Of a stretch of 64,000 nt of DNA, positions 9,001 to 51,232 are shown one piece after another. The stretch is from Eledone cirrhosa (lineage: Eukaryota). The stretch is taken from NCBI GenBank assembly GCA_964016885.1, contig OZ024764.1, positions 19,096,001 to 19,160,000 of the forward strand. The letters run 5' to 3'. The stretch's first letter is position 1; the number at the start of each line of letters is the position of its first letter. The notes beneath the pieces were generated by a model. It was not told the DNA's origin. It saw only the letters and a list, made by a program, of their open reading frames with translations, and did not search any database. The translations under genes and the position numbers were made by a program.

Positions 9001-12000
9001 ATGTAGGTGTCACAACAAAAAGTACCCAGGCCACACTGTAAAGTGGTCATGTAGGTGTCACAACAAAATATACCCAGTCCACACTGTAAAGTGGTCATGT
9101 AGGTGTCACAACAAAAAGTACCCAGTCCACACTGTAAAGTGGTCATGTAGGTGTCACAACAAAAAGTACCCAGTCCACACTGTAAAGTGGTCATGTAGGT
9201 GTCACAACAAAAAGTACCCAGTCCACCCTGTAAAGTGGTCATATATGTGTCACAACAAAAGGTACCCAGTCCACCCTGTAAAGTGGTCATGTATGTGTCA
9301 CAACAAAAAGTACCCAGTCCACACTGTAAAGTGGACATGTAGGTGTCATGACAAAAAGTACCCAGTCCACACTGTAAAGTGGTCATGTAGGTGTCACAAC
9401 AAAAAGTACCCAGTCCACACTGTAAAGTGGTCATGTAGGTGTCACAACAAAAAGTACCCAGTCCACACTGTAAAGTGGTCATGTAGGTGTCACAACAAAA
9501 AGTACCCAGGCCACACTGTAAAGTGGTCATGTAGGTGTCACAACAAAAAGTACCCAGTCCACACTGTAAAGTGGTCATGTAGGTGTCACAACAAAAAGTA
9601 CCCAGTCCACACTGTAAAGTGGTCATGTAGGTGTCACAACAAAAAGTACCCAGTCCACACTGTAAAGTGGTCATGTAGGTGTCACAACAAAAAGTACCCA
9701 GTCCACACTGTAAAGTGGTCATGTAGGTGTCACAACAAAAAGTACCCAGTCCACACTGTAAAGTGGTCATGTAGGTGTCACAACAAAAAGTACCCAGTCC
9801 ACCCTGTAAAGTGGTCATATATGTGTCACAACAAAAAGTACCCAGTCCACCCTGTAAAGTGGTCATGTATGTGTCACAACAAAAAGTACCCAGTCCACAC
9901 TGTAAAGTGGTCATGTATGTGTCACAACAAAATTACCCAGTCCACACTGTAAAGTGGTCATGTAGGTGTCACAACAAAAAGTACCCAGTCCACACTGTAA
10001 AGTGGTCATGTAGGTGTCATAACAAAAAGTACCCAGTCCACACTGTAGAGTGGTCAGGTAGGTATCATGACAAAAAGTACCCAGTCCACACTGTAAAGTG
10101 GTCATGTAGGTGTCACAACAAAAAGTACCCAGTCCACACTGTAAAGTGGTCATGTAGGTGTCATAACAAAAAGTACCCAGTCCACACTATAAAGTGGTCA
10201 GGTAGGTGTCACAACAAAAAGTACCCAGTCCACACTGTAAAGTGGTCATGTAGGTGTCACAACAAAAAGTACCCAGTCCACACTGTAAAGTGGTCATGTA
10301 GGTGTCATAACAAAAAGTACCCAGTCCACACTGTAAAGTGGTCAGGTAGGTGTCACAACAAAAAGTACCCAGTCCATACTGTAAAGTGGTCATGTAGGTG
10401 TCACAACAAAAAGTACCCAGTCCACACTGTAAAGTGGTCATGTATGTGTCACAACAAAAAGTACCCAGTCCACACTGTAAAGTGGTCATGTAGGTGTCAC
10501 AACAAAAAGTACCCAGTCCACACTGTAAAGTGGTCATGTAGGTGTCATAACAAAAAGTACCCAGTCCACACTGTAGAGTGGTAAGGTAGATGTCATGACA
10601 AAAAGTACCCAGTCCACACTGTAAAGTGGTCATGTAGGTGTCACAACAAAAAGTACCCAGTCCACACTGTAAAGTGGTCATGTAGGTGTCATAACAAAAA
10701 GTACCCAGTCCACACTGTAAAGTGGTCAGGTAGGTGTCACAATAAAAAGTACCCAGTCCACACTGTAAAGTGGTCATGTAGGTGTCACAACAAAAAGTAC
10801 CCAGTCCACACTGTAAAGTAGTCATGTAGGTGTCATAACAAAAAGTACCCAGTCCACACTGTAAAGTGGTCAGGTAGGTGTCACAACAAAAAGTACCCAG
10901 TCCACACTGTAAAGTGGTCATGTAGGTGTCACAACAAAAAGTACCAAGTCCACACTGTAGAGTGGTCAGGTAGGTATCATGACAAAAAGTACCCAGTCCA
11001 CACTGTAAAGTGGTCATGTAGGTATCATGACAAAAAGTACCCAGTCCACACTGTAAAGTGGTAATGTAGGTGTCACAAAAAAAAACAACACCCAGTCCAC
11101 ACTGTAAAGTGGTCATGTAGGTGTCACGACAAAAAGTACCCAGTCCACCTCTGTAAAGTGGTCATGTAGGTGTCACAACAAAATATACCCAGTCCACACT
11201 GTAAAGTGGTCATGTAGGTGTCACAACAAAAAGTACCCAGTCCACACTGTAAAGTGGTCATGTAGGTGTCACAACAAAAAGTACCCAGTCCACACTGTAA
11301 AGTGGTCATGTAGGTGTCACAACAAAAAGTACCCAGTCCACACTGTAAAGTGGTCATGTAGGTGTCACAACAAAAAGTACCCAGTCCACACTGTAAAGTG
11401 GTCATGTAGGTGTCACAACAAAAAGTACCCAGTCCACCCTGTAAAGTGGTCATATATGTGTCACAACAAAAATTACCCAGTCCACCCTGTAAAGTGGTCA
11501 TGTATGTGTCACAACAAAAAGTACCCAGTCCACACTGTAAAGTGGTCATGTAGGTGTCACAACAAAAAGTACCCAGTCCACACTGTAAAGTAGTCATGTA
11601 GGTGTCATAACAAAAAGTACCCAGTCCACACTGTAAAGTGGTCAGGTAGGTGTCACAACAAAAAGTACCCAGTCCACACTGTAAAGTGGTCATGTAGGTG
11701 TCACAACAAAAAGTACCCAGTCCACACTGTAAAGTGGTCATGTAGGTGTCATAACAAAAAGTACCCAGTCCACACTGTAAAGTGGTCATGTAGGTGTCAC
11801 AACAAAAAGTACCCAGTCCACACTGTAAAGTGGTCATGTAGGTGTCATAACAAAAAGTACCCAGTCCACACTGTAAAGTGGTCAGGTAGGTGTCACAACA
11901 AAAAGTACCCAGTCCACACTGTAAAGTGGTCATGTAGGTGTCACAACAAAAAGTACCCAGTCCACACTGTAAAGTGGTCATGTAGGTGTCATAACAAAAA

Positions 12001-15000
12001 GTACCCAGTCCACACTGTAAAGTGGTCATGTAGGTGTCACAACAAAAAGTACCCAGTCCACACTGTAAAGTGGTCATGTAGGTGTCACAACAAAAAGTAC
12101 CCAGTCCACACTGTAAAGTGGTCAGGTAGGTGTCACAACAAAAAGTACCCAGTCCACACTGTAAAGTGGTCATGTAGGTGTCACAACAAAAAGTAGCCAG
12201 TCCACACTGTAAAGTGGTCATGTATGTGTCACAACAAAAGGTACCCAGTCCACACTGTAAAGTGGTCATGTAGGTGTCACAACAAAAAGTACCCAGTCCA
12301 CACTGTAAAGTGGTCATGTAGGTGTCATAACAAAAAGTACCCAGTCCACACTGTAGAGTGGTCAGGTAGGTATCATGACAAAAAGTACCCAGTCCACACT
12401 GTAAAGTGGTAATGTAGGTGTCACAAAAAAAAACAACACCCAGTCCACACTGTAAAGTGGTCATGTAGGTGTCACGACAAAAAGTACCCAGTCCACCTCT
12501 GTAAAGTGGTCATGTAGGTGTCACAACAAAAAGTACCCAGTCCACACTGTAAAGTGGTCATGTAGGTGTCATAACAAAAAGTACCCAGTCCACACTGTAA
12601 AGTGGTCAGGTAGGTGTCACAACAAAAAGTACCCAGTCCACACTGTAAAGTGGTCATGTAGGTGTCACACAAAAAGTACCCAGTCCACACTGTAAAGTGG
12701 TCATGTAGGTGTCATAACAAAAAGTACCCAGTCCACACTGTAAAGTGGTCAGGTAGGTGGCACAACAAAAAGTACCCAGTCCACACTGTAAAGTGGTCAT
12801 GTAGGTGTCACAACAAAAAGTACCAAGTCCACACTGTAGAGAGGTCAGGTAGGTATCATGACAAAAAGTACCCAGTCCACACTGTAAAGTGGTCATGTAG
12901 GTATCATGACAAAAAGTACCCAGTCCACACTGTAAAGTGGTAATGTAGGTGTCACAAAAAAAAACAACACCCAGTCCACACTGTAAAGTGGTCATGTAGG
13001 TGTCACGACAAAAAGTACCCAGTCCCCCTCTGTAAAGTGGTCATGTAGGTGTCACAACAAAAAGTACCCAGTCCACACTGTAAAGTGGTCATGTAGGTGT
13101 CACAACAAAAAGTACCCAGTCCACACTGTAAAGTGGTCATGTAGGTGTCATAACGAAAAGTACCCAGTCCACACTGTAAAGTGGTCAGGTAGGTGTCACA
13201 ACAAAAAGTACCCAGTCCACACTGTAAAGTGGTCATGTAGGTGTCACAACAAAAAGTACCCAGTCCACACTGTAAAGTGGTCATGTAGGTGTCATAACAA
13301 AAAGTACCCAGTCCACACTGTAAAGTGGTCAGGTAGGTGGCACAACAAAAAGTACCCAGTCCACACTGTAAAGTGGTCATGTAGGTGTCACAACAAAAAG
13401 TACCAAGTCCACACTGTAGAGTGGTCAGGTAGGTATCATGACAAAAAGTACCCAGTCCACACTGTAAAGTGGTCATGTAGGTATCATGACAAAAAGTACC
13501 CAGTCCACACTGTAAAGTGGTAATGTAGGTGTCACAAAAAAAAACAACACCCAGTCCACACTGTAAAGTGGTCATGTAGGTGTCACGACAAAAAGTACCC
13601 AGTCCACCTCTGTAAAGTGGTCATGTAGGTGTCACAACAAAAAGTACCCAGTCCACACTGTAAAGTGGACATGTAGGTGTCATGACAAAAAGTACCCAGT
13701 CCACACTGTAAAGTGGTCATGTAGGTGTCACAACAAAAAGTACCCAGTCCACACTGTAAAGTGGTCATGTAGGTGTCACAACAAAAAGTACCCAGTCCAC
13801 ACTGTAAAGTGGTCATGTAGGTGTCACAACAAAAAGTACCCAGGCCACACTGTAAAGTGGTCATGTAGGTGTCACAACAAAATATACCCAGTCCACACTG
13901 TAAAGTGGTCATGTAGGTGTCACAACAAAAAGTACCCAGTCCACACTGTAAAGTGGTCATGTAGGTGTCACAACAAAAAGTACCCAGTCCACACTGTAAC
14001 GTGGTCATGTAGGTGTCACAACAAAAAGTACCCAGTCCACCCTGTAAAGTGGTCATATATGTGTCACAACAAAAGGTACCCAGTCCACCCTGTAAAGTGG
14101 TCATGTATGTGTCACAACAAAAAGTACCCAGTCCACACTGTAAAGTGGACATGTAGGTGTCATGACAAAAAGTACCCAGTCCACACTGTAAAGTGGTCAT
14201 GTAGGTGTCACAACAAAAAGTACCCAGTCCACACTGTAAAGTGGTCATGTAGGTGTCACAACAAAAAGTACCCAGTCCACACTGTAAAGTGGTCATGTAG
14301 GTGTCACAACAAAAAGTACCCAGGCCACACTGTAAAGTGGTCATGTAGGTGTCACAACAAAAAGTACCCAGTCCACACTGTAAAGTGGTCATGTAGGTGT
14401 CACAACAAAAAGTACCCAGTCCACACTGTAAAGTGGTCATGTAGGTGTCACAACAAAAAGTACCCAGTCCACACTGTAAAGTGGTCATGTAGGTGTCACA
14501 ACAAAAAGTACCCAGTCCACACTGTAAAGTGGTCATGTAGGTGTCACAACAAAAAGTACCCAGTCCACACTGTAAAGTGGTCATGTAGGTGTCACAACAA
14601 AAAGTACCCAGTCCACCCTGTAAAGTGGTCATATATGTGTCACAACAAAAAGTACCCAGTCCACCCTGTAAAGTGGTCATGTATGTGTCACAACAAAAAG
14701 TACCCAGTCCACACTGTAAAGTGGTCATGTATGTGTCACAACAAAATTACCCAGTCCACACTGTAAAGTGGTCATGTAGGTGTCACAACAAAAAGTACCC
14801 AGTCCACACTGTAAAGTGGTCATGTAGGTGTCATAACAAAAAGTACCCAGTCCACACTGTAGAGTGGTCAGGTAGGTATCATGACAAAAAGTACCCAGTC
14901 CACACTGTAAAGTGGTCATGTAGGTGTCACAACAAAAAGTACCCAGTCCACACTGTAAAGTGGTCATGTAGGTGTCATAACAAAAAGTACCCAGTCCACA

Positions 15001-18000
15001 CTATAAAGTGGTCAGGTAGGTGTCACAACAAAAAGTACCCAGTCCACACTGTAAAGTGGTCATGTAGGTGTCACAACAAAAAGTACCCAGTCCACACTGT
15101 AAAGTGGTCATGTAGGTGTCATAACAAAAAGTACCCAGTCCACACTGTAAAGTGGTCAGGTAGGTGTCACAACAAAAAGTACCCAGTCCACACTGTAAAG
15201 TGGTCATGTAGGTGTCACAACAAAAAGTACCCAGTCCACACTGTAAAGTGGTCATGTATGTGTCACAACAAAAAGTACCCAGTCCACACTGTAAAGTGGT
15301 CATGTAGGTGTCACAACAAAAAGTACCCAGTCCACACTGTAAAGTGGTCATGTAGGTGTCATAACAAAAAGTACCCAGTCCACACTGTAGAGTGGTAAGG
15401 TAGATGTCATGACAAAAAGTACCCAGTCCACACTGTAAAGTGGTCATGTAGGTGTCACAACAAAAAGTACCCAGTCCACACTGTAAAGTGGTCATGTAGG
15501 TGTCATAACAAAAAGTACCCAGTCCACACTGTAAAGTGGTCAGGTAGGTGTCACAATAAAAAGTACCCAGTCCACACTGTAAAGTGGTCATGTAGGTGTC
15601 ACAACAAAAAGTACCCAGTCCACACTGTAAAGTAGTCATGTAGGTGTCATAACAAAAAGTACCCAGTCCACACTGTAAAGTGGTCAGGTAGGTGTCACAA
15701 CAAAAAGTACCCAGTCCACACTGTAAAGTGGTCATGTAGGTGTCACAACAAAAAGTACCAAGTCCACACTGTAGAGTGGTCAGGTAGGTATCATGACAAA
15801 CAGTACCCAGTCCACACTGTAAAGTGGTCATGTAGGTATCATGACAAAAAGTACCCAGTCCACACTGTAAAGTGGTAATGTAGGTGTCACAAAAAAAAAC
15901 AACACCCAGTCCACACTGTAAAGTGGTCATGTAGGTGTCACGACAAAAAGTACCCAGTCCACCTCTGTAAAGTGGTCATGTAGGTGTCACAACAAAATAT
16001 ACCCAGTCCACACTGTAAAGTGGTCATGTAGGTGTCACAACAAAAAGTACCCAGTCCACACTGTAAAGTGGTCATGTAGGTGTCACAACAAAAAGTACCC
16101 AGTCCACACTGTAAAGTGGTCATGTAGGTGTCACAACAAAAAGTACCCAGTCCACACTGTAAAGTGGTCATGTAGGTGTCACAACAAAAAGTACCCAGTC
16201 CACACTGTAAAGTGGTCATGTAGGTGTCACAACAAAAAGTACCCAGTCCACCCTGTAAAGTGGTCATATATGTGTCACAACAAAAATTACCCAGTCCACC
16301 CTGTAAAGTGGTCATGTATGTGTCACAACAAAAAGTACCCAGTCCACACTGTAAAGTGGTCATGTATGTGTCACAACAAAAAGTACCCAGTCCACACTGT
16401 AAAGTGGTCATGTAGGTGTCACAACAAAAGTACCCAGTCCACACTGTAAAGTGGTCATGTAGGTGTCATAACAAAAAGTACCCAGTCCACACTGTAGAGT
16501 GGTCAGGTAGGTATCATGACAAAAAGTACCCAGTCCACACTGTAAAGTGGTCATGTAGGTGTCATAACAAAAAGTACCCAGTCCACACTGTAAAGTGGTC
16601 AGGTAGGTGTCACAACAAAAAGTACCCAGTCCACACTGTAAAGTGGTCATGTAGGTGTCACAACAAAAAGTACCCAGTCCACACTGTAAAGTGGTCATGT
16701 AGGTGTCATAACAAAAAGTACCCAGTCCACACTGTAAAGTGGGCAGGTAGGTGTCACAACAAAAAGTACCCAGTCCACACTGTAAAGTGGTCATGTAGGT
16801 GTCACAACAAAAAGTACCCAGTCCACACTGTAAAGTGGTCATGTATGTGTCACAACAAAAAGTACCCAGTCCACACTGTAAAGTGGTCATGTAGGTGTCA
16901 CAACAAAAAGTACCCAGTCCACACTGTAAAGTAGTCATGTAGGTGTCATAACAAAAAGTACCCAGTCCACACTGTAAAGTGGTCAGGTAGGTGTCACAAC
17001 AAAAAGTACCCAGTCCACACTGTAAAGTGGTCATGTAGGTGTCACAACAAAAAGCACCCAGTCCACACTGTAAAGTGGTCATGTAGGTGTCATAACAAAA
17101 AGTACCCAGTCCACACTGTAAAGTGGTCAGGTAGGTGTCACAACAAAAAGTACCCAGTCCACACTGTAAAGTGGTCATGTAGGTGTCATAACAGAAAGTA
17201 CCCAGTCCACACTGTAAAGTGGTCAGGTAGGTGGCACAACAAAAAGTACCCAGTCCACACTGTAAAGTGGTCATGTAGGTGTCACAACAAAAAGTACCAA
17301 GTCCACACTGTAGAGTGGTCAGGTAGGTATCATGACAAAAAGTACCCAGTCCACACTGTAAAGTGGTCATGTAGGTATCATGACAAAAAGTACCCAGTCC
17401 ACACTGTAAAGTGGTAATGTAGGTGTCACAAAAAAAACAACACCCAGTCCACACTGTAAAGTGGTCATGTAGGTGTCACAACAAAAAGTACCCAGTCCAC
17501 CTCTGTAAAGTGGTCATGTAGGTGTCACAACAAAAAGTACCCAGTCCACACTGTAAAGTGGTCATGTAGGTGTCATAACAAAAAGTACCCAGTCCACACT
17601 GTAAAGTGGTCAGGTAGGTGTCACAACAAAAAGTACCCAGTCCACACTGTAAAGTGGTCATGTAGGTGTCACAACAAAAAGCACCCAGTCCACACTGTAA
17701 AGTGGTCATGTAGGTGTCATAACAAAAAGTACCCAGTCCACACTGTAAAGTGGTCAGGTAGGTGTCACAACAAAAAGTACCCAGTCCACACTGTAAAGTG
17801 GTCATGTAGGTGCCACAACAAAAAGTACCCAGTCCACACTGTAAAGTGGTCATGTATGTGTCACAATAAAAAGTACCCAGTCCACACTGTAAAGTGGTCA
17901 GGTAGGTGTCACAACAAAAAGTACCCAGTCCACACTGTAAAGTGGTCATGTAGGTGTCACAACAAAAAGTACCCAGTCCACACTGTAAAGTGGTCATGTA

Positions 18001-21000
18001 GGTGTCATAACAAAAAGTACCCAGTCCACACTGTAAAGTGGTCAGGTAGGTGGCACAACAAAAAGTACCCAGTCCACACTGTAAAGTGGTCATGTAGGTA
18101 TCACAACAAAAAGTACCAAGTCCACACTGTAGAGTGGTCAGGTAGGTATCATGACAAAAAGTACCCAGTCCACACTGTAAAGTGGTCATGTAGGTATCAT
18201 GACAAAAAGTACCCAGTCCACACTGTAAAGTGGTAATGTAGGTGTCACAAAAAAAAACAACACCCAGTCCACACTGTAAAGTGGTCATGTAGGTGTCACG
18301 ACAAAGAGTACCCAGTCCACCTCTGTAAAGTGGTCATGTAGGTGTCACAACAAAAAGTACCCAGTCCACACTGTAAAGTGGTCATGTAGGTGTCACAACA
18401 AAAAGTACCCAGTCCACACTGTAATGTGGTCATGTAGGTGTCACAACAAAAAGTACTCAGTCCACACTGTAAAGTGGTCATGTAGGTGTCACAACAAAAA
18501 GTACCCAGTCCACACTGTAAAGTGGTCATGTAGGTGTCACAACAAAAAGTACCCAGTCCACCCTGTAAAGTGGTCATATATGTGTCACAACAAAAATTAC
18601 CCAGTCCACCCTGTAAAGTGGTCATGTATGTGTCACAACAAAAAGTACCCAGTCCACACTGTAAAGTGGTCATGTATGTGTCACAACAAAAAGTACCCAG
18701 TCCACACTGTAAAGTGGTCATGTAGGTGTCACAACAAAAAGTACCCAGTCCACACTGTAAAGTGGTCATGTAGGTGTCATAACAAAAAGTACCCAGTCCA
18801 CACTGTAGAGTGGTCAGGTAGGTATCATGACAAAAAGTACCCAGTCCACACTGTAAAGTGGTCATGTAGGTGTCATAACAAAAAGTACCCAGTCCACACT
18901 GTAAAGTGGTCAGGTAGGTGTCACAACAAAAAGTACCCAGTCCACACTGTAAAGTGGTCATGTAGGTGTCACAACAAAAAGTACCCAGTCCACACTGTAA
19001 AGTGGTCATGTAGGTGTCATAACAAAAAGTACCCAGTCCACACTGTAAAGTGGGCAGGTAGGTGTCACAACAAAAAGTACCCAGTCCACACTGTAAAGTG
19101 GTCATGTAGGTGTCACAACAAAAAGTACCCAGTCCACACTGTAAAGTGGTCATGTATGTGTCACAACAAAAAGTACCCAGTCCACACTGTAAAGTGGTCA
19201 GGTAGGTGTCACAACAAAAAGTACCCAGTCCACACTGTAAAGTGGTCATGTAGGTGTCATAACAAAAAGTACCCAGTCCACACTGTAAAGTGGTCAGGTA
19301 GGTGGCACAACAAAAAGTACCCAGTCCACACTGTAAAGTGGTCATGTAGGTATCATGACAAAAAGTACCCAGTCCACACTGTAAAGTGGTAATGTAGGTG
19401 TCACAAAAAAAAACAACACCCAGTCCACACTGTAAAGTGGTCATGTAGGTGTCACAACAAAAAGTACCCAGTCCACCTCTGTAAAGTGGTCATGTAGGTG
19501 TCACAACAAAAAGTACCCAGTCCACACTGTAAAGTGGTCATGTAGGTGTCATAACAAAAAGTACCCAGTCCACACTGTAGAGTGGTCAGGTAGGTATCAT
19601 GACAAAAAGTACCCAGTCCACACTGTAAAGTGGTCATGTAGGTGTCATAACAAAAAGTACCCAGTCCACACTGTAAAGTAGTCATGTAGGTGTCATAACA
19701 AAAAGTACCCAGTCCACACTGTAAAGTGGTCAGGTAGGTGTCACAACAAAAAGTACCCAGTCCACACTGTAAAGTGGTCATGTAGGTGTCACAACAAAAA
19801 GCACCCAGTCCACACTGTAAAGTGGTCATGTAGGTGTCATAACAAAAAGTACCCAGTCCACACTGTAAAGTGGTCAGGTAGGTGTCACAACAAAAAGTAC
19901 CCAGTCCACACTGTAAAGTGGTCATGTAGGTGCCACAACAAAAAGTACCCAGTCCACACTGTAAAGTGGTCATGTATGTGTCACAATAAAAAGTACCCAG
20001 TCCACACTGTAAAGTGGTCATGTAGGTGTCACAACAAAAAGTACCCAGTCCACACTGTAAAGTGGTCATGTAGGTGTCATAACAAAAAGTACCCAGTCCA
20101 CACTGTAGAGTGGTCAGGTAGGTATCATGACAAAAAGTACCCAGTCCACACTGTAAAGTGGTAATGTAGGTGTCACAAAAAAAAACAACACCCAGTCCAC
20201 ACTGTAAAGTGGTCATGTAGGTGTCACGACAAAAAGTACCCAGTCCACACTGTAAAGTGGTCATGTAGGTGTCACAACGAAAAGTACCCAGTCCACACTG
20301 TAAAGTGGTCATGTAGGTGTCATAACAAAACGTACCCAGTCCACACTGTAAAGTGGTCAGGTAGGTGTCACAACAAAAAGTACCCAGTCCACCTCTGTAA
20401 AGTGGTCATGTAGGTGTCACAACAAAAAGTACCCAGTCCACACTGTAAAGTGGTCATGTAGGTGTCACAACGAAAAGTACCCAGTCCACACTGTAAAGTG
20501 GTCATGTAGGTGTCATAACAAAACGTACCCAGTCCACACTGTAAAGTGGTCATGTAGGTGTCATAACAAAACGTACCCAGTCCACACTGTAAAGTGGTCA
20601 GGTAGGTGTCACAACAAAAAGTACCCAGTCCACACTGTAAAGTGGTCATGTAGGTGTCATAACAAAAAGTACCCAGTCCACACTATAAAGTGGTCATGTA
20701 GGTGTCACAACAAAAAGTACCCAGTCCACACTGTAAAGTGGTCATGTAGGTGTCATAACAAAAAGTACCCAGTCCACACTGTAAAGTGGTCATGTAGGTG
20801 TCATAACAAAAAGTACCCAGTCCACACTGTAAAGTGGTCATGTAGGTGTCATAACAAAAAGTACCCAGTCCACACTGTAAAGTGGTCATGTAGGTGGCAC
20901 AACAAAAAGTACCCAGTCCACACTGTAAAGTGGTCATGTAGGTATCACAACAAAAAGTACCAAGTCCACACTGTAGAGAGGTCAGGTAGGTATCATGACA

Positions 21001-24000
21001 AAAAGTACCCAGTCCACACTGTAAAGTGGTCATGTAGGTATCATGACAAAAAGTACCCAGTCCACACTGTAAAGTGGTCATGTAGGTGTCACAAAAAAAA
21101 ACAACACCCAGTCCACACTGTAAAGTGGTCATGTAGGTGTCACGACAAAGAGTACCCAGTCCACCTCTGTAAAGTGGTCATGTAGGTGTCACAACAAAAA
21201 GTACCCAGTCCACACTGTAAAGTGGTCATGTAGGTGTCACAACAAAAAGTACCCAGTCCACACTGTAATGTGGTCATGTAGGTGTCACAACAAAAAGTAC
21301 TCAGTCCACACTGTAAAGTGGTCATGTAGGTGTCACAACAAAAAGTACCCAGTCCACCCTGTAAAGTGGTCATGTAGGTGTCACAACAAAAAGTACCCAA
21401 TCCACACTGTAATGTGGTCATACAGGTTTCACAACAAAAAGTACCCAGTCCACACTGTAATGTGGTCATATAGGTGTCACAACAAAAAGTACCCAGTCCA
21501 CACTGTAAAGTGGTCATGTAGGTGTCACAACAAAAAGTACCCAGTCCACACTGTAAAGTGGACATGTAGGTGTCATGACAAAAAGTACCCAGTCCACACT
21601 GTAAAGTGGTCATGTAGGTGTCACAACAAAAAGTACCCAGTCCACACTGTAAAGTGGTCATGTAGGTGTCACAACAAAAAGTACCCAGTCCACACTGTAA
21701 AGTGGTCATGTAGGTGTCACAACAAAAAGTACCCAGGCCACCCTGTAAAGTGGTCATGTAGGTGTCACAACAAAATATACCCAGTCCACACTGTAAAGTG
21801 GTCATGTAGGTGTCACAACAAAAAGTACCCAGTCCACACTGTAAAGTGGTCATGTAGGTGTCACAACAAAAAGTACCCAGTCCACCCTGTAAAGTGGTCA
21901 TATATGTGTCACAACAAAAGGTACCCAGTCCACCCTGTAAAGTGGTCATGTATGTGTCACAACAAAAAGTACCCAGTCCACACTGTAAAGTGGTCATGTA
22001 TGTGTCACAACAAAAAGTACCCAGTCCACACTGTAAAGTGGTCATGTACGTGTCACAACAAAAAGTACCCAGTCCACACTGTAAAGTGGTCATGTAGGTG
22101 TCACAACAAAAAGTACCCAGTCTACACTGTAAAGTGGTCATGTAGGTGTCACAACAAAAAGTACCCAGTCCACACTATAAAGTGGTCATGTAGGTGTCAC
22201 AACAAAAAGTACCCAGTCCACACTGTAAAGTGGTCATGTAGGTGTCACAACAAAAAGTACCCAGTCCACACTGTAAAGTGGTCATGTAGGTGTCACAACA
22301 AAAAGTAACCAGTCCACCCTGTAAAGTGGTCATATATGTGCCACAACAAAAAGTACCCAGTCCACCCTGTAAAGTGGTCATGTATGTGTCACAACAAAAA
22401 GTACCCAGTCCACACTGTAAAGTGGTCATGTAGGTGTCATAACAAAAAGTACCCAGTCCACACTGTAGAGTGGTCAGGTAGGTATCATGACAAAAAGTAC
22501 CCAGTCCACACTGTAAAGTGGTCATGTAGGTGTCACAACAAAAAGTACCCAGTCCAGACTGTAAAGTGGTCATGTAGGTGTCATAACAAAAAGTACCCAG
22601 TCCACACTGTAAAGTGGTCAGGTAGGTGTCACAACAAAAAGTACCCAGTCCACACTGTAAAGTGGTCATGTAGGTGTCACAACAAAAAGTACCCAGTCCA
22701 CACTGTAAAGTGGTCATGTAGGTGTCATAACAAAAAGTACCCAGTCCACACTGTAAAGTGGTCAGTTAGGTGTCACAACAAAAAGTACCCAGTCCACACT
22801 GTAAAGTGGTCATGTAGGTGTCACAACAAAAAGTACCCAGTCCACACTGTAAAGTGGTCAGGTAGGTGGCACAACAAAAAGTACCCAGTCCACACTGTAA
22901 AGTGGTCATGTAGGTATCACAACAAAAAGTACCAAGTCCACACTGTAGAGTGGTCAGGTAGGTATCATGACAAAAAGTACCCAGTCCACACTGTAAAGTG
23001 GTCATGTAGGTATCATGACAAAAAGTACCCAGTCCACACTGTAAAGTGGTAATGTAGGTGTCACAAAAAAAAACAACACCCAGTCCACACTGTAAAGTGG
23101 TCATGTAGGTGTCACGACAAAGAGTACCCAGTCCACCTCTGTAAAGTGGTCATGTAGGTGTCACAACAAAAAGTACCCAGTCCACACTGTAAAGTGGTCA
23201 TGTAGGTGTCACAACAAAAAGTACCCAGTCCACACTGTAATGTGGTCATGTAGGTGTCACAACAAAAAGTACTCAGTCCACACTGTAAAGTGGTCATGTA
23301 GGTGTCACAACAAAAAGTACCCAGTCCACCCTGTAAAGTGGTCATGTAGGTGTCACAACAAAAAGTACCCAATCCACACTGTAATGTGGTCATACAGGTT
23401 TCACAACAAAAAGTACCCAGTCCACACTGTAATGTGGTCATATAGGTGTCACAACAAAAAGTACCCAGTCCACACTGTAAAGTGGTCATGTAGGTGTCAC
23501 AACAAAAAGTACCCAGTCCACACTGTAAAGTGGACATGTAGGTGTCATGACAAAAAGTACCCAGTCCACACTGTAAAGTGGTCATGTAGGTGTCACAACA
23601 AAAAGTACCCAGTCCACACTGTAAAGTGGTCATGTAGGTGTCACAACAAAAAGTACCCAGTCCACACTGTAAAGTGGTCATGTAGGTGTCACAACAAAAA
23701 GTACCCAGGCCACCCTGTAAAGTGGTCATGTAGGTGTCACAACAAAATATACCCAGTCCACACTGTAAAGTGATCATGTAGGTGTCACAACAAAAAGTAC
23801 CCAGTCCACACTGTAAAGTGGTCATGTAGGTGTCACAACAAAAAGTACCCAGTCCACACTGTAAAGTGGTCATGTAGGTGTCACAACAAACAGTACCCAG
23901 TCCACCCTGTAAAGTGGTCATATATGTGTCACAACAAAAGGTACCCAGTCCACCCTGTAAAGTGGTCATGTATGTGTCACAACAAAAAGTACCCAGTCCA

Positions 24001-27000
24001 CACTGTAAAGTGGTCATGTATGTGTCACAACAAAAAGTACCCAGTCCACACTGTAAAGTGGTCATGTAGGTGTCACAACAAAAAGTACCCAGTCTACACT
24101 GTAAAGTGGTCATGTAGGTGTCACAACAAAAAGTACCCAGTCCACACTATAAAGTGGTCATGTAGGTGTCACAACAAAAAGTACCCAGTCCACACTGTAA
24201 AGTGGTCATGTAGGTGTCACAACAAAAAGTACCCAGTCCACACTGTAAAGTGGTCATGTAGGTGTCACAACAAAAAGTACCCAGTCCACCCTGTAAAGTG
24301 GTCATATATGTGCCACAACAAAAAGTACCCAGTCCACCCTGTAAAGTGGTCATGTATGTGTCACAACAAAAAGTACCCAGTCCACACTGTAAAGTGGTCA
24401 TGTAGGTGTCATAACAAAAAGTACCCAGTCCACACTGTAGAGTGGTCAGGTAGGTATCATGACAAAAAGTACCCAGTCCACACTGTAAAGTGGTCATGTA
24501 GGTGTCACAACAAAAAGTACCCAGTCCACACTGTAAAGTGGTCATGTAGGTGTCATAACAAAAAGTACCCAGTCCACACTGTAAAGTGGTCAGTTAGGTG
24601 TCACAACAAAAAGTACCCAGTCCACACTGTAAAGTGGTCATGTAGGTGTCACAACAAAAAGTACCCAGTCCACACTGTAAAGTGGTCATGTATGTGTCGC
24701 AACAAAAAGTACCCAGTCCACACTGTAAAGTGGTCATGTAGGTGTCACAACTAAAAGTACCCAGTCCACACTGTAAAGTGGTCATGTAGGTGTCATAACA
24801 AAAAGTACCCAGTCCACACTGTAAAGTGGTCATGTAGGTGTCACAACAAAAAGTACCCAGTCCACACTGTAAAGTGGTCATGTAGATGTCATAACAAAAA
24901 GTACCCAGTCCACACTGTAGAGTGGTAAGGTAGGTATCATGACAAAAAGTACCCAGTCCACACTGTAAAGTGGTCATGTAGGTGTCACAACAAAAAGTAC
25001 CCAGTCCACACTGTAAAGTGGTCATGTAGGTGTCATAACAAAAAGCACCCAGTCCACACTGTAAAGTGGTCATGTAGGTGTCACAACAAAAAGTACCCAG
25101 GCCACACTGTAAAGTGGTCATGTAGGTGTCACAACAAAAAGTACCCAGTCCACACTGTAAAGTGGTCATGTAGGTGTCATAACAAAAAGTACCCGGTCCA
25201 CACTGTAAAGTGGTCATGTAGGTGTCACAACAAAAAGTACCCAGTCCACACTGTAAAGTGGTCAGGTAGGTGTCACAACAAAAAGTACCCAGTCCACACT
25301 GTAAAGTGGTCATGTAGGTGTCACAACAAAAAGTACCCAGTCCACACTGTAAAGTGGTCATGTAGGTGTCATAACAAAAAGCACCCAGTCCACACTGTAA
25401 AGTGGTCAGGTAGGTGTCACAACAAAAAGTACCCAGTCCACACTGTAAAGTGGTCATGTAGGTGTCACAACAAAAAGTACCCAGTCCACACTGTAAAGTG
25501 GTCAGGTAGGTGTCACAACAAAAAGTACCCAGTCCACACTGTAAAGTGGTCATGTAGGTGTCACAACAAAAAGTACCAAGTCCACACTGTAGAGTGGTCA
25601 GGTAGGTATCATGACAAAAAGTACCCAGTCCACACTGTAAAGTGGTCATGTAGGTGTCACAACAAAAAGTACCAAGTCCACACTGTAGAGTGGTCAGGTA
25701 GGTATCATGACAAAAAGTACCCAGTCCACACTGTAAAGTGGTCATGTAGGTGTCACAACAAAAAGTACCCAGTCCACACTGTAAAGTGGTCATGTAGGTG
25801 TCACAACAAAAAGTACCAAGTCCACACTGTAAAGTGGTCATGTAGGTATCATGACAAAAAGTACCCAGTCCACACTGTAAAGTGGTAATGTAGGTGTCAC
25901 AAAAAAAAAACAACACCCAGTCCACACTGTAAAGTGGTCATGTAGGTGTCACGACAAAAAGTACCCAGTCCACCTCTGTAAAGTGGTCATGTAGGTGTCA
26001 CAACAAAATATACCTAGTCCACACTGTAAAGTGGTCAGGTAGGTGTCACAACAAAAAGTACCCAGTCCACACTGTAAAGTGGTCATGTAGGTGTCACAAC
26101 AAAAAGTACCCAATCCACACTGTAAAGAGGTCATGTAGGTGTCACAACAAAAAGTACCCAATCCACACTGTAAAGAGGTCATGTAGGTGTCACAACAAAA
26201 AGTACCCAGTCCACACTGTAAAGTGGTCATGTAGGTGTCACAACAAAAAGTACCCAGTCCACACTGTAAAGTGGTCATGTAGGTGTCACAACAAAAAGTA
26301 CCCAGTCCACACTGTAAAGTGGTCAGGTAGGTGTCATAACAAAAAGTACCCAGTCCACCCTGTAAAGTGGTCATATATGTGCCACAACAAAAAGTACCCA
26401 GTCCACCCTGTAAAGTGGTCATGTATGTGTCACAACAAAAAGTACCCAGTCCACACTGTAAAGTGGTCATGTATGTGTCACAACAAAATTACCCAGTCCA
26501 CACTGTAAAGTGGTCATGTAGGTGTCACAACAAAAAGTACCCAGTCCACACTGTAAAGTGGTCATGTAGGTGTCATAACAAAAAGTACCCAGTCCACACT
26601 GTAGAGTGGTCAGGTAGGTATCATGACAAAAAGTACCCAGTCCACACTGTAAAGTGGTCATGTAGGTGTCACAACAAAAAGTACCCAGTCCACACTGTAA
26701 AGTGGTCATGTAGGTGTCACAACAAAAAGTACCCAGTCCACACTGTAAAGTGGTCATGTAGGTGTCATAACAAAAAGTACCCAGTCCACACTGTAAAGTG
26801 GTCAGGTAGGTGTCACAACAAAAAGTACCCAGTCCACACTGTAAAGTGGTCATGTAGGTGTCACAACAAAAAGTACCTAGTCCACACTGTAAAGTGGTCA
26901 TGTAGGTGTCATAACAAAAAGTACCCAGTCCACACTGTAAAGTGGTCAGTTAGGTGTCACAACAAAAAGTACCCAGTCCACACTGTAAAGTGGTCAGGTA

Positions 27001-28329
27001 GGTGTCACAACAAAAAGTACCCAGTCCACACTGTAAAGTGGTCATGTAGGTGTCACAACAAAAAGTACCCAGTCCACACTGTAAAGTGGTTATGTATGTG
27101 TCGCAACAAAAAGTACCCAGTCCACACTGTAAAGTGGTCATGTAGGTGTCACAACAAAAAGTACCCAGTCCACACTGTAAAGTGGTTATGTATGTGTCGC
27201 AACAAAAAGTACCCAGTCCACACTGTAAAGTGGTCATGTAGGTGTCATAACAAAAAGTACCCAGTCCACACTGTAGAGTGGTCATGTAGGTGTCATAACA
27301 AAAAGTACCCAGTCCACACTGTAGAGTGGTAAGGTAGGTATCATGACAAAAAGTACCCAGTCCACACTGTAAAGTGGTCATGTAGGTGTCACAACAAAAA
27401 GTACCCAGTCCACACTGTAAAGTGGTCATGTAGGTGTCATAACAAAAAGCACCCAGTCCACACTGTAAAGTGGTCAGGTAGGTGTCACAACAAAAAGTAC
27501 CCAGTCCACACTGTAAAGTGGTCATGTAGGTGTCACAACAAAAAGTACCCAGTCCACACTGTAAAGTGGTCATGTAGGTGTCATAACAAAAAGTACCCAG
27601 TCCACACTGTAAAGTGGTCAGGTAGGTGTCACAACAAAAAGTACCCAGTCCACACTGTAAAGTGGTCATGTAGGTGTCACAACAAAAAGTACCCAGTCCA
27701 CACTGTAGAGTGGTCAGGTAGGTATCATGACAAAAAGTACCCAGTCCACACTGTAAAGTGGTCATGTAGGTGTCACAACAAAAAGTACCAAGTCCACACT
27801 GTAAAGTGGTCATGTAGGTATCATGACAAAAAGTACCCAGTCCACACTGTAAAGTGGTAATGTAGGTGTCACAAAAAAAAACAACACCCAGTCCACACTG
27901 TAAAGTGGTCATGTAGGTGTCACGACAAAAAGTACCCAGTCCACCTCTGTAAAGTGGTCATGTAGGTGTCACAACAAAATATACCTAGTCCACACTGTAA
28001 AGTGGTCATGTAGGTGTCACAACAAAAAGTACCCAGTCCACACTGTAAAGTGGTCATGTAGGTGTCACAACAAAAAGTACCCAATCCACACTGTAAAGTG
28101 GTCATGTAGGTGTCACAACAAAAAGTACCCAGTCCACACTGTAAAGTGGTCATGTAGGTGTCACAACAAAAAGTACCCAGTCCACACTGTAAAGAGGTCA
28201 TGTAGGTGTCACAACAAAAAGTACCCAGTCCACACTGTAAAGTGGTCATGTAGGTGTCACAACAAAAAGTACCCAGTCCACACTGTAAAGTGGTCATGTA
28301 GGTGTCACAACAAAAAGTACCCAGTCCAC
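1..28329. repeat. 48-bp tandem satellite, about 590 monomers, open at the window start; consensus cccagtccacactgtaaagtggtcatgtaggtgtcacaacaaaaagta
   Basis: Uninterrupted, directly visible 48-bp period with recurrent variants (gtcataac, tcaggtagg, ggtatcatgac, a longer acaaaaaaaaacaacaccc unit, a cacctctgt unit). Confidence 0.99.
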
Positions 28330-28616: not shown

Positions 28617-28665
<49 letters not shown>

Positions 28666-28856: not shown

Positions 28857-28872
28857 AGACACATTAGTAGTA

Positions 28873-30192: not shown

Positions 30193-30261
30193 TTAGTACC
30201 AACGTATATAGATAATATAGCTTCAAATTAAAGTTAGTAAACGACAGTTTGGAGAAATCTG

Positions 30262-31006: not shown

Positions 31007-32165
31007 GAGGGACTGACAGATACAAGACTATCTGGAGATAGAAGAGTTGGAGAGTAAAAGATCTCCCTGTTAAATATAAGATCTAAAGCATAAAGGAATT
31101 GAGAGAGAGACTGAGCATAAGAGGAATCAAATGCTGCGTGCAGGAGAGGCGGTTACGCTGGTATGGACATGTGATGCGTATGAAGGATGACAGCTGCATA
31201 AAAAGGTGCAGAGCACTAGAAGTTGATGGAAACCGCGGAGTGGGGAGACCCAAGATGACTTGGGATGAGGTGATAAAAGCCGACCTTACCCAACTACACC
31301 TCTCAAAGTCAATGACACACGACCGTGACTTCTGGCGTCACGCAGTAATACAGGGTACCCGACCTCCCATGGGTACATGCTGAAGCATATAAACAATATG
31401 CCCCCACCGCAAGGTGGTCGTGGAGGTGCCACGGCAAAAAAACACCCAGCCCACACTGTAAAGTGGACGTGTAGGCGCCACGAAAAAGCACCCAGCACTC
31501 ACTGTAAATGAGGTTGGTGTTAGGAAGGGCATCCAGCTGTAGAAATCAAGCCAGATCAGTTCCTGTATGAGAAAGGCATGGTCAGCCGACCAGACACTGC
31601 CCACAACAGGACAACCTGTCTAACCCATGCTAGCGTGGAAGAACGGACGTAAAACGGTGATGATGATGATGATGAGAGGGACTGTGAGAGAGGTACAAGA
31701 CAACCTAGAGAAAAGGGTAGGGATAGTAAAAGATCTCCCTGTTAAATATAAGATCTAGAGGGACTGTGAGAGAGGTACAAGACAACCTAGAGAAAAGGGT
31801 AGGGATAGTAAAAGATCTCCCTGTTAAATATAAGATATAGAGGGACTGTGAGAGAGGTAAAAGACAACCTAGAGAAAAGGGTAGGGATAGTAAAATATCT
31901 CCCTGTTAAATATAAGATCTAGAGGGACTGTGAGAGAGATACAAGACAACCTAGAGAAAAGGGTAGGGATAGTAAAATATCTCCCTGTTAAATATAAGAT
32001 CTAGAGGGACTGTGAGAGAGGTACAAGACAACCTAGAGAAAAGGGTAGGGATAGTAAAATATCTCCCTGTTAAATATAAGATCTAGAGGGACTGTGAGAG
32101 AGGTACAAGACAATCTAACAAAAGGGGTAAGGACAGTAAAAGATCTCCCTGTTAAATATAAATTC
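31007..32165. repeat. 82-bp minisatellite (about 7 units), interrupted by an RTE 3' fragment
   Basis: Unit gagggactgtgagagaggtacaagacaacctagagaaaagggtagggatagtaaaagatctccctgttaaatataagatcta; period 31681 to 31763. Confidence 0.95.
31086..31675 (+). mobile_element. RTE LINE 3' fragment (ORF end, structured 3' UTR, (GAT)n tail), copy A only
   Basis: RRLRWYGHVMRM..GVGRPKMTWDEVI; near-identical to the reverse complement of 48306-48880; gatgatgatgatga tail; absent from the copy B 82-bp array. Confidence 0.92.
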
Positions 32166-32342: not shown

Positions 32343-32711
32343 AGCCGACCTTACCCAATTACACCTCTCAAAGGCAATGACACACGACCGTGACCTCTGG
32401 CGTCACGCAGTAATACAGAGTACCCAACCTCCAATGGGTACAAGCTGAAGCATATAGACAATATGCCCCCACCGCAAAAAAGCACCCAGCCCACACTGTA
32501 AAGCGGACGTGTAGGCGCCACGAAAAAGCACCCACCACTCACTGTAAATGAGGTTGGTGTTAGGAAGGACATCCAGCTGTAGAAATCAAGCCAAATCAGT
32601 TCCTGTATGAGCAAGGCATGGCCAGCCAACCAGACACTGCCCACAACAGGACAATCCGTCTAACCAATGCTAGCGTGGAAGAACGGACGTAAAACGGTGA
32701 TGATGATGATG
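32343..32711 (+). mobile_element. RTE LINE 3' fragment with (GAT)n tail, shared by both duplicates
   Basis: Matches 31278-31675 apart from a deletion of one 3'UTR module; same position in copy B at 53933-54308. Confidence 0.9.
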
Positions 32712-32915
32712 GTAGAAGTTGAAATCTAAAACAACTGAAGAGAAAGGAGGAGAACAACAATATCAAATAGTTAAAATGGAAGCTAGATATTAGGCTTACA
32801 AATTATTGATTTCTGTTGTTATTGTTAAATTCTGTTTAATCTGTGATATGTGAGACAATGTACAGGACAATAGAATTAATATCAATGTCTGACTAGCAAC
32901 AACAAAAGTTTTCAT

Positions 32916-47224: not shown

Positions 47225-47564
47225 TGCCCACACTGCAAAGTGGTTGGGTAGGAGATATGACAAAAAGCACCCAACCAACACTGTAGAGAACACACAGTCA
47301 ACATTATAAGGTGGTCATGTAGGTGATATGATAAAAAGAAACCAGCCCACACTGCAAAGAACACACAGTCAACATTATAAGGTGGTCATGTAGGTGATAT
47401 GACAAAAAGAAACCAGCCCACACTGCAAAGAACACACAGCCAACACTATAAGGTGGTCATGTAGGTGATATGACAAAAAGAAACCAGCCCACACTGCAAA
47501 GAACACACAGCCAACACTATAAGGTGGTCATGTAGGTGATATGACAAAAAGAAGCCAGCCCACA
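47225..47564. repeat. 71-bp tandem repeat (about 4.5 units) related to the 48-bp satellite
   Basis: gaacacacag at 47288, 47359, 47430 and 47501; the unit contains gtggtcatgtaggtg..gacaaaaag..ccagcccacact. Confidence 0.93.
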
Positions 47565-48306
47565 CTATAAAGTGGTCATGTAGGTGTCACAACAAAAAAC
47601 ACCCAGTCCACACTGTAAAGTGGTCATGTAGGTGTCACAACAAAAAGTACCCAGTCTACACTGTAAAATGGTCATGTAGGTGTCACAACAAAAAGTACCC
47701 AGTCCACACTGTAAAGTGGTCATGTAGGTGTCACAACAAAAAGTACCCAGTCCACACTGTAAAGTGGTCATGTAGGTGTCACAACAAAAAGTACCCAGTC
47801 CACACTGTAAAGTGGTCATGTAGGTGTCACAACAAAAAGTACCCAGTCCACACTGTAAAGTGGTCATGTAGGTGTCACAACAAAAAACACCCAGTCCACA
47901 CTGTAAAGTGGTCATGTAGGGGTCACAACAAAAAGTACCCAGTCTACACTGTAAAGTGGTCATGTAGGTGTCACAACAAAAAGTATCCAGTCTACACTGT
48001 AAAGTAGTCATGTAGGTGTCACAACAAAAAACACCCAGTCCACACTGTAAAGTGGTCATGTAGGTGTCACAACAAAAAGTACCCAGTCTACACTGTAAAA
48101 TGGTCATGTAGGTATCACAACAAAAAGTACCCAGTCCACACTGTAAAGTGGTCATGTAGGTGTCACAACAAAAAGTACCCAGTCTATACTGTAAAGTGGT
48201 CATGTAGGCGTCACAACAAAAAGTACCCAGTCCACACTGTAAAGTGGTCATGTAGGTGTCACAACAAAAAGTACCCAGTCTATACTGTAAAGTGGTCATG
48301 TAGGTC
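47565..48306. repeat. Second array of the 48-bp satellite (about 15 monomers)
   Basis: Same consensus and orientation as 1-28329. Confidence 0.98.
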
Positions 48307-51022
48307 ATCATCATCACCGTTTTACGTCCGTTCTTCCACGCTAGCATGGGTTAGACGGGTTGTCCTGTTGTGGGCAGTGTCTGGTCGGCTGACCATGGCT
48401 TGCTCATACAGGAACTGATCTGGCTTGATTTCTACAGCTGGATGCCCTTCCTAACACCAACCTCATTTACGTGTGGCGCCTACACGTCCACTTTACAGTG
48501 TGGGCTGGGTGCTTTTTTGCCATGGCACCTCCACGACCACCTTGCGGTGGGGGGGTGTGGGCGCATATTGTCTATATGCTTCAGCTTGTACCCATGGAAG
48601 GTCGGGTACTCTGTATTACTGCGTGACGCCAGAAGTCACGGTCGTGTGTCATTGCCTTTGAGAGGTGTAATTGGGTAAGGTCGGCTTTTATCACCTCATC
48701 CCAGGTCATCTTGGGTCTCCCCACTCCGCGGTTTCCATCGACTTCTAGTGCTCTGCACCTTTTTATGCAGCTGTCATCCTTCATACGCATCACATGGCCA
48801 TACCAGCACAACCGCCTCTCCTGCACACAGCATTTGATTCCTCTTATGCTCAGTCTCTCTCTCAATTCATTTATGCTTTGTCGTTCACGTATATTACTGT
48901 TACACATCCATCGGAGCATGCAGGCTTCCTTTCTCTCTAATCTACGTAAATCTTCCACCTTCAGCGCCCAGGTCTCACTACCATGCAACATTGCTGTTCG
49001 GATACACGCATCATACAGTCTGCCTTTCATTCTGAGGGAGAAGCCTTTTGCAGCTAGCAGTGCTAGTAGTTCCCTAAACTTCTTCCATCCCGTTCTTACC
49101 CTAGTTATTGTACTTTCTGAACACCCACCTCCGCTGCTAATTTGGTCACCTAGGTAGCAGAAGCTGTCTACTCTTTCTACAGAGCCCTCCCAGAGATTGG
49201 TGGTACTTGTTTCCTGTGGCTGTTTGCTGTCTTAGCACAGCTGCTGCATGTGAATCCTACATTCTTAATTAAGCTTCCTGAGATCCCGCTACATCTCGTG
49301 TACCGATTGTTTGCATTTGGGGCAGAGAATGGAGTTCCTACCTACACCTTTCCTACATACTGAGCAAGGCCATTTCCCTGAGGGGATCTGGGTTCTGTTT
49401 TCTTGTCTACTTACAAGGACCTTAGTCTTTGAGACCCTTTCTTTCTAGTCCCTGCTTCCAAGTTTGGAATTTATTCTCTAGTTCTACCATAGATTCAGCT
49501 ATGAGTGCGAGGTCATCAGCATACAGGAGTGCCCATGGGCAACTGGTCTTAAACTCCTCCGTTATTGCCTGCAGGACTATGATGAACAGGAGGGGGCTAA
49601 GAACAGAGCCCTGGTGGACCCCAACCTGTATGCTAAATTCCTCGCTATACTCATTGCTAATCCTAACTTTGCTGACTGCTCCCCTATACATGGCTTGTAC
49701 CACTTTCACAAGCCATTCATCTACTCCTAGTTTTCTAAGAGCCCACCAGATTACAGCACATGGAACTCTGTCAAAGGCTTTCTCAAGGTTGACAAATGCC
49801 AAGTAGAGTGGCTTACTTTTAGCTAGGTACTTTTCCTGTAATTGCCTCACAAGGAAGAGGGCATCAGTGGTGCCTCTTCCTGGTACAAACCCAAATTGCA
49901 TCTCGTCTATTTTCACCCGGTCCCTAATCAACTGTGCTATAACTCTTTCTATTACTTTCATGACCTGGTCCATCAACTTTATACCTCTATAGTTTCCTCT
50001 ATCTAGTGCATCGCCTTTACCTTTGTAGCAGTTGACAATGATGCTACTGCACCAATCTTTTGGTATGGCACCTTCTAGTATTACCTGGTTAACAATACAT
50101 GTGGTTATAGTGTGACCTACAGACCCAGATGCCTTCAGCATCTCGGCAGATATACCTGATGGACCGGTTGCCTTCCCCATCTTCATATCTTTGATTGCCT
50201 TACTTACTACGCTGCTGCTGGTCCCTCTATAGAGTCTACTTGGGGTAGGGTCTCTTCTTCCCATGCATTCTCCTCATTTAGTAATCTATCATAATGACTC
50301 TTCCATGCATCTTTCTTCTCAGCACTTGTGAGGGCAAGCTCACCTTTATCATTCCAGATACACTTCTCTCCAATGACATCACAACTATCTCTGACACACT
50401 GCCTCGCAATCTTGAATACCTCCTGTTTCTGGTCCTCACGTTGCAAAACATGCTTGAATTTTCTATCCTCTGCTTCCATCTTGGTCTCTATGTGATGTAC
50501 CCTGCTCCCCCCGTTCTTCCATTCTTTCCATGCCTGTCTCTTGGCCTTAACTGCTTCATCTACCTTGTTCCACCACTAAGTCACTCTCCTCCTGCTTGAG
50601 GTCTTACTCCAGCCACAGACCTCATCCGTCGCCTCTAGTAAATTATTTTTTAGGAACTCCCAGTTCTCTTCTACATTAAATGTCTCTATCTGTTCTTCTT
50701 TACTGTCGTAGGCGTTGAGTAAAATATCTTTAAATCTGTTACTGGTTGAGGGGTCTTTCAGCTTCCAGATCTTTCTTCTCCAGGTTGGCCTCTGTTTCCG
50801 GGTTCATCTAGTTCTAACTGTGAGGTCGCTGACAACTAAGCTATGTTGGGAGGTACATTCCTCACTAGGGAAGGCCTTTGTGTTTACGACCATCCATCTG
50901 TCACGTCCTCTGATGAGGATAAAATCTAACTGACTAGAGTGCTCCCCTGATCTATAGGTGATCAGGTGGTTGTCGGGTTTTTTAAAGTTTGTGTTACATA
51001 TTGACATGTCATTGGCGTCACA
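48307..51022 (-). mobile_element. 5'-truncated RTE LINE (end of AP endonuclease, RT, C-terminus, 3' UTR, (GAT)n tail), frameshifted
   Basis: ICNTNFKKPDNHLITYRSG..LDFIL; KGKGDALDRGNYRGIKL, QFGFVPGRGTTDA, LEKAFDRVP, GVHQGSVLSPLLF, YADDL; catcatcatcacc tail at 48307. Confidence 0.96.
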
Positions 51023-51232
51023 GGTGTCACAACAAAAAGCACCCAGCCCACACTGTAAAGTGGTCCTGATGGTGAGATGGTAAAATGCACCCAGTACTCA
51101 ATGTAAATAAGGTTGGTGCTAGGAAGGGCATCCAGCTGTAGAAACCAAACCAAAATTTGTTCAGTAAGAGCAACACGTTATCACCTGACCTGGCTTTGCT
51201 TACAACAGGATAACTCGTCTAACCCATGCCAT
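51023..51232 (+). mobile_element. Terminal part of the RTE/SINE 3' UTR that hosts the 71/48-bp arrays
   Basis: ggtgtcacaacaaaaagcacccagcccacactgtaaagtggtc continues the interrupted monomer, then ggttggtgctaggaagggcatccagctgtagaaa..aacccatgc. Confidence 0.8.

Follow-up and report, generated by a model that had tools for sequence, protein, structure and literature searches.

The host element and the layout of its 3′ untranslated region

The window, by which we mean the whole 64,000-nt stretch of the Eledone cirrhosa genome analysed here (contig OZ024764.1), contains the end of an RTE-type LINE open reading frame at 31085..31383 on the plus strand. This copy is truncated on its 5′ side and closes with the stop codon TGA at 31381-31383 (C-terminal tblastn match, 95%); its homology to other copies begins 427 nt ahead of the terminal unit described below. 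Longer copies of the host LINE have a single open frame of 743 aa, with an Exo_endo_phos (APE endonuclease) domain followed by an RVT_1 (RT) domain, and RVT_1 is also found in the window's own longer copy. We call the element an RTE-type LINE from this ORF architecture and its (GAT)n tail, rather than from a tree. The tail is a microsatellite with no poly(A): (GAT)n ends at least 29 of the 30 nearest LINE copies, which share 99% mutual identity, and 30/30 of which extend upstream into the end of the RTE ORF. More widely, an RTE C-terminal match lies at most 900 nt upstream of 97 of 310 terminal units (44-100% identity, among the matches listed), some of these matches being neighbouring elements.

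The module begins 21 nt past the stop codon. Its repeating unit is about 48 nt long and consists of a hairpin with a GNRA loop and a predicted H-type pseudoknot, with 1-3 units per element. All features of the flagged copy are on the plus strand. Hairpin 1 (31404..31417) has 5 bp and the GNRA loop GCAA. It is followed by pseudoknot unit 1 (31417..31446), which would comprise a 7-bp S1 (31417-31423/31429-31435), a 1-nt L1 (31424), a 4-bp S2 (31425-31428/31443-31446) and a 7-nt A-rich L3 (31436-31442). Hairpin 2 (31451..31466) has a GUAA loop and the stem 31454-31457/31462-31465, or in another register 31451-31454/31463-31466; it leads to a second, degenerate pseudoknot unit (31468..31492). Next come hairpin 3 (31498..31512), where one pair varies between U-A and A-U among copies, and the terminal unit (31512..31552), whose stem (31512-31517/31533-31538) is followed by an A-rich stretch and GCC. 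The terminal stem-loop of the module has 89,589 exact matches in the 3.0-Gb genome. A 3′ terminal stem-loop with the (GAT)n tail (31616..31675) ends the element; within it (31616-31660) the LINE and a SINE version (L058) differ in sequence, with the pairing intact in both.

An earlier note on this DNA had assigned tandem hairpins and pseudoknots to a LINE 3′ UTR, and this placement is borne out, since the layout follows the ORF stop in several RTE subfamilies; LINE families A, B, E and F all have 1-3 units in the 3′ UTR. The module is absent from the upstream part shared by 30 copies of the Eledone RTE, a part that may stop short of the true 5′ end. Three module matches upstream of the RTE ORF were rejected as 5′-UTR copies, as all lie in unshared flanks.

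The four stretches quoted in the earlier note, the 71-mer (47385) and the satellite minor variant are all present where it put them, and its pseudoknot reading holds for some of them. In a pseudoknot scan, the score of unit 1 was reached by 0/300 dinucleotide shuffles, that of the unit at 51667 by 0/300 and that of the 71-mer by 1/300, whereas the units at 31468 and 51714 score 0 in a scan demanding an L1 of at least 1 nt and no mismatch. The unit at 31468 does not stand as an intact pseudoknot: S1 has only 4 pairs, and the S2 pairing of GGCG with CACC contains a C-A mismatch that had gone unflagged. The unit at 51714, as drawn, has no L1 base and an S2 of only 3 pairs. The hairpin said to precede each pseudoknot is present, but is better drawn with GNRA tetraloops (GCAA, GUAA).

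S2 is 3-5 bp long, with stacking of about -5 to -7.6 kcal/mol before loop costs. Layout alone is weak evidence because a loose pseudoknot scan of 28331-64000 matches 112 times on the plus strand and 60 times on the minus strand, mostly through AT-rich chance or one unrelated array; G+C-rich stems set unit 1 apart from these chance layouts. The unit geometry and the GNRA loops fit the sense strand only, and the reverse strand of unit 1 has no equivalent A-rich layout. The MFE fold of 31395-31670 gives a z-score of -0.67, which is uninformative because knots are outside the model.

The A-rich stretch and GCC behind the terminal stem may form a third pseudoknot with a long L1. Such a knot can be drawn in 7/24 groups (0 and 3 in control windows), and in a comparison with shuffles 6 were found against a mean of 4.0 (maximum 9), which is not significant. 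In contigs of four runs, which we guess to be RNA, the terminal unit is deeply covered, with a related hairpin and A-rich flanks; strand, ends and folding are not readable from contigs.

Further copies lie in the same window. One on the plus strand (32464..32712), duplicated near 54050-54300, has lost 25 nt of pseudoknot 1 (GCAA to GCAA) through the recurrent deletion that is discussed below. The 3′ UTR of the longer RTE-type copy, on the minus strand (48307..48560), has unit 2 partly deleted, with ORF pieces including the RT domain reaching to about 51020. An older, decayed two-unit copy with its terminal unit is at 51030..51140 (plus strand), and a B-family tail at 51665..52145 (plus strand) comprises B1, B2 and then 3 tandem copies of a 112-nt block made of unit and terminal unit.

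The unit has also been multiplied into arrays. A 48-bp satellite built of it occupies 1..28329, and local 71-bp and 48-bp arrays occupy 47248..48305, all on the plus strand. S1 is fully paired in only 19 of the 438 satellite units parsed (about 588 in all), which make up the minor variant, and the 5′ CpG is kept in 0/438. The tcatg/catga variants of the satellite and the 71-mer are, by their sequence, the product expected from double decay of facing CpGs. They had been offered as covariation, but are no evidence for it, because CpG decay suffices to produce them and the arrays, unlike active elements, are not expected to be selected as RNA. Satellites and local arrays would be by-products of the tandem unit, decaying through CpG loss.

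Several other observations belong to this region. At 28320-28360, where the 48-bp array gives way to unique DNA, its last unit is followed by an inverted copy of itself, which makes a short fold-back. A segmental duplication pairs about 28330-37500 with about 51330-59400; each duplicate has an 82-bp and a 39-bp array, and a minus-strand C2H2 zinc-finger ORF (33192-34913 and 54921-56135). Minus-strand frames at 38385-41250 resemble what we take to be another non-LTR element, with a PHD-like finger. Outside the window, independent local arrays with 48-bp and 97-bp periods occur at seven loci (L081, L090, L266, L281, L283, L320 and L327), each with its own variants, and some are still joined to the terminal unit.

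Pairing among dispersed copies

For a wider comparison, a sequence-only profile was applied to 1.25 Mb of Eledone loci and yielded 911 different full-length units, of which 367 are dispersed. Among the dispersed units, 34 fell in no type, and 14 types had at least 5 loci.

The clearest two-sided change is in S2. One dispersed, amplified subfamily is defined by a transversion of a pair, with GGAG/CUCC (U-A to A-U) next to a GGUG/CACC unit of the same element. Judged by eye in the first 100 genome matches, an A on the 5′ side of S2 has the partner U on the 3′ side in 49 cases, and a U on the 3′ side has the partner A on the 5′ side in 68. The same compensation test on an S1 core pair gave 1 of 100 (by eye), and the S1 core is invariant in this genome; pair 2 of S1 does vary (U-A, U-G, C-G). 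In the hairpins, the pair in hairpin 3 is U-A in 63, A-U in 50 and mismatched in 3 of 116 copies, and the closing pair of hairpin 1 is U-A in 35, U-G in 6, C-G in 16 and mismatched in 2 of 59 copies. An amplified lineage with S2 GGAA/UUCC was also considered and rejected, as the whole pattern has only 28 matches. The compensatory changes total five or six lineage events. Since the partners in several pairs differ jointly from one active lineage to another, selection has likely maintained the fold.

A test on 17 rows gave pairing in 86.9% of cells, with 6/15 pairs changing on both sides and 0/500 shuffles equal, a result biased in that the rows were picked by hand, partly by their stem letters, and S2 was partly misaligned. 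Private double changes kept pairing in 16 of 23 cases, which indicates that CpG decay can mimic covariation.

The 14 types give a mixed picture. In the standard register, only 4 keep all 10 core pairs, and the other 10 break 1-3 of them; unit 2 (A2) breaks 3/10. The earlier note's statement that both stems change sequence yet keep pairing thus applies to some positions, in S2 and the hairpins, and fails in 10/14 types. It overstated the covariation: the true non-CpG changes exist, but it had not seen them, and the S1 core, as noted, does not vary.

These breaks are central to one alternative, namely that folding, with weak conservation, is confined to the hairpins and S1, that S2 is incidental, and that slippage multiplied a unit with no selected role beyond that of the neighbouring terminal unit and tail. 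S2 is broken in 7/14 types in the standard register, abundant lineages (B2c, A2) have a weak S2, and across the 14 types the proposed pairs rank no higher than spurious column pairs. B-type units nevertheless regain S2 in a shifted register, and the hinge base between the 5′ strand of S2 and the 3′ strand of S1 pairs with one stem or the other in 14/14 types (permutation P 0.012, the types not being independent) and in 353/363 copies. Each sampled family, moreover, retains at least one unit in which both stems can form, a pattern that fits redundancy and is not proof of S2. With the transversion in S2 also counting against it, we consider this alternative rather unlikely.

On this evidence, folding of the hairpin and S1 is strongly suggested, and closure of the knot by S2 moderately so. 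Tandem units would then be redundant, such that one may decay while another stays intact.

Footprints, SINEs and other animals

The recurrent 25-nt deletion has one end in each of two GCAA motifs, the loop of hairpin 1 and the one where S1 ends, and takes away the body of knot 1. It is present in 97 copies genome-wide, compared with 11,837 intact two-unit copies, whereas two control deletions in the same element, with equal or longer microhomologies, have 2 and 5 copies. The deletion arose repeatedly, because 20 of the 97 copies, when sampled, differ in subfamily markers and span several subfamilies. A plausible route is an RT that halts once it is two bases inside S1 and then pairs again within the open tetraloop; DNA slippage at the hairpin, helped by the A-run, would give the same product. 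The deletion supports S1, not S2: S1 alone suffices for it, as the alternative with an incidental S2 would have it.

Truncated copies of the B family bear on a different alternative, in which the knots do form but their job is to protect the RNA or process it by blocking an exonuclease (5′-to-3′ or 3′-to-5′), or to aid translation of a LINE RNA without poly(A), in the manner of the tobamovirus upstream pseudoknot domain (UPD). Tandem compact H-type knots with an A-rich L3, in the 3′ UTR of a (GAT)n-tailed element, are what such a role might look like, and truncated copies have fewer 5′ starts inside knot B2 (8 in 20 nt) than in its flanks (16 and 9 per 11 nt), as would be expected of a protected core. 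The counts are small, however, and starts are also few further upstream (7 in 20 nt); they were made by eye on 38 + 24 usable loci beside TA runs, with 3 unclear loci dropped, and are subject to search-gap bias. A pile-up of 5′ truncations at one knot edge was rejected on similar grounds, with peaks at both edges, small numbers and the search bias. Retention of the unit by a non-coding SINE argues against translation, as such an element has no use for a translation enhancer, and the UPD and xrRNA families of Rfam are unmatched. A protective or translational role is, in our judgement, unlikely.

The SINE in question has a tRNA head, fused to the module where the hairpin begins. Behind it come 1 or 2 units, the terminal unit and, with the central part of the UTR missing, an RTE-type tail; the head and CORE labels of this SINE are tentative ones, given by eye. 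The selected job would lie in RNP assembly or in holding the template rather than in translation.

Matches in other animals comprise at least 123 metagenome stretches and 9 stretches in prokaryote bins. A prokaryotic origin was rejected for the terminal unit in the prokaryote assemblies (L254-L262), which reflect contamination of the bins by animal hosts; their contigs include an RTE ORF 52% alike to the Eledone LINE endonuclease. Viral contigs gave 0 matches. Among the matches listed from other animals, 29/120 rows have a tRNA-like B box ahead of the terminal unit, and in two RTEs of other animals (L189 and L254) this unit adjoins the RTE ORF upstream, in the 5′ UTR. The terminal unit thus fits the body of an RTE-derived SINE, an RTE 5′-UTR piece between a tRNA head and an RTE-type tail; this evidence of 5′-UTR origin covers the terminal unit alone. 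Upstream of the terminal unit in L189 there is also a near-perfect hairpin of about 110 nt, with miRNA-model matches below cut-offs, which is probably a small inverted-repeat element.

A comparable knot lies upstream of the terminal unit in 4 of the 132 other-animal stretches listed (0-3 in shuffles). In two of these (L174 and L226) layout and spacing agree with the Eledone unit and S1 is GAGA/UCUC, yet none of the four (L174, L187, L152 and L226) resembles that unit significantly in sequence (29-75 of 500 shuffles). The knot is thus dispensable for the majority of elements with the terminal unit, a further point for an incidental S2.

A function at the DNA level is another reading: the conserved stretch would be a factor-binding site or a piece of promoter, and its pairings would simply follow from short inverted repeats. 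Animals share the sequence of the terminal unit, which occurs in RTE 5′ UTRs and directly behind SINE heads, and the stem of this unit has no covariation across animals, with 827 of 1000 partner swaps as good as the flanks' own partners. Set against this, the hairpins and S2 have changes on both sides of a pair as well as wobble intermediates, the transcribed strand is the one that bears the GNRA loops and the A-rich L3, and the module has a 3′ position in the Eledone genome. We regard a DNA-level function as highly improbable.

A candidate function and its known counterparts

The explanation that we favour, at a probability of roughly 0.45, is that selection maintains the module as a cis-acting RNA fold that serves retrotransposition; the RTE protein would probably bind it to choose its template or keep hold of it, much as with the 3′-UTR pseudoknot of R2. 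This explanation is preferred because a non-coding SINE has kept whole units and because the R2 pseudoknot does a job of this kind. Three functions had been proposed for the module, namely RNA stability, translation and RT recruitment; by analogy, RT recruitment fits best and translation worst.

A bolder extension, which we hold to be doubtful and speculative, makes the module a mobile, position-independent RTE RNA domain. Hairpin-knot and terminal units would then belong to one cross-animal pseudoknot family, located in the 5′ UTR in some lineages and here moved to the 3′ UTR and stacked up to 3 deep; bound by the RTE protein and causing RT to pause and jump, it would have seeded tens of thousands of SINE bodies as well as kilobase satellites.

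If the favoured explanation is right, one conserved SINE body would acquire a function, and the seeding of satellites by a 48-mer would be explained. The natural compensatory variants, the deletions and the SINE retention would then serve as a mutant panel for the 3′-UTR pseudoknot as a general handle for non-LTR proteins. To our knowledge, recognition of RNA by RTE proteins beyond the last stem-loop is poorly known. RTE UTRs are meanwhile being engineered for gene insertion, according to the part of one report consulted (PMC13708176).

A literature search found no description of the module, and the exact terminal motif is absent from the full texts searched; Akasaki 2010, Ohshima and Okada 1994, Ruminski 2011 and Repbase may cover the SINE or LINE families. 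The comparison drew on portions of PMC5786205, PMC9115989, PMC13708176, PMC8501958, PMC4683447, PMC11601368 and PMC4758252. Neither the supplement of PMC5786205 (six motifs searched, in a file whose wrapped lines could hide a match) nor that of PMC4758252 (bar one file) yielded the terminal motif. The earlier note had proposed a search of Rfam, and this matched no pseudoknot family: for 28300-64000, 31380-31680 and eight related loci there was no relevant family, just chance miRNA and snoRNA matches with E up to 5-10.

Within the RTE clade, the parts of Kojima 2018 that we compared describe conserved pieces of RTE 5′ UTRs as the bodies of tRNA-headed SINEs with RTE-type tails; their function is left open there, with the speculation that the 5′-UTR domains are a factor-binding site or a piece of promoter (PMC5786205). 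In Eledone, by contrast, the coding LINEs themselves have the piece, located in their 3′ UTR together with tandem knots. No pseudoknot is proposed in parts 1-4 of 5 of that paper (PMC5786205). In the portion of its supplement compared, the "unknown body" of a moth SINE, HaSE1, has by eye an S1-S2-S1-A-rich-S2-like layout (PMC5786205).

Ribozymes offer another pseudoknotted RNA in RTE UTRs. HDV-like ribozymes are held by RTE 5′ UTRs (cited in the parts of Kojima 2018 compared, PMC5786205), and the 5′ UTR of the RTE Perere-3 has twister variants (PMC8501958, in part). These lie at the 5′ end and cleave, whereas the Eledone unit consists of two predicted crossing helices only, with no catalytic core found; cleavage at the unit would cut the ORF from the tail. 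HDV-like, twister and hammerhead ribozymes had no Rfam match, and a descriptor, run with no positive control, found nothing in 4/4 stretches.

The plant-virus analogy of the earlier note goes no further than shape. Like the tobamovirus UPD, as given in the part of the source compared (PMC4683447), the module is predicted to have compact H-type pseudoknots in succession within a 3′ UTR that lacks poly(A), one of the two units being degenerate in this copy. It differs in having hairpins between the knots and in being kept by a non-coding SINE, and where a UPD is followed by a tRNA-like structure, a stem-loop and (GAT)n stand instead. Membership of the tobamovirus UPD was rejected, there being neither a tRNA-like 3′ end nor an Rfam match.

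The closest counterpart is vertebrate R2, where, in the part of the work compared, a 3′-UTR pseudoknot is bound by the R2 protein and compensatory mutants restore activity (PMC11601368). The two have in common a pseudoknot, a predicted one in Eledone, that lies in a non-LTR 3′ UTR ahead of a 3′ stem, as well as a purine stretch rich in A and a fold kept despite sequence divergence. R2 has a single knot in the last 65 nt, with a 6-nt hinge to the 3′ stem and recognition through a zinc finger of an RLE-type protein (PMC11601368). The Eledone element, of APE type, has 1-3 knots, each with a GNRA hairpin, and they are at least 165 nt from the tail: the last knot ends at 31492 and the tail begins near 31658, so that the position is not that of R2. 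Binding has been shown for R2, while the Eledone unit has a predicted fold and a proposed role in binding. By this comparison the Eledone unit is neither a UPD nor an R2 module, but may work like the latter.
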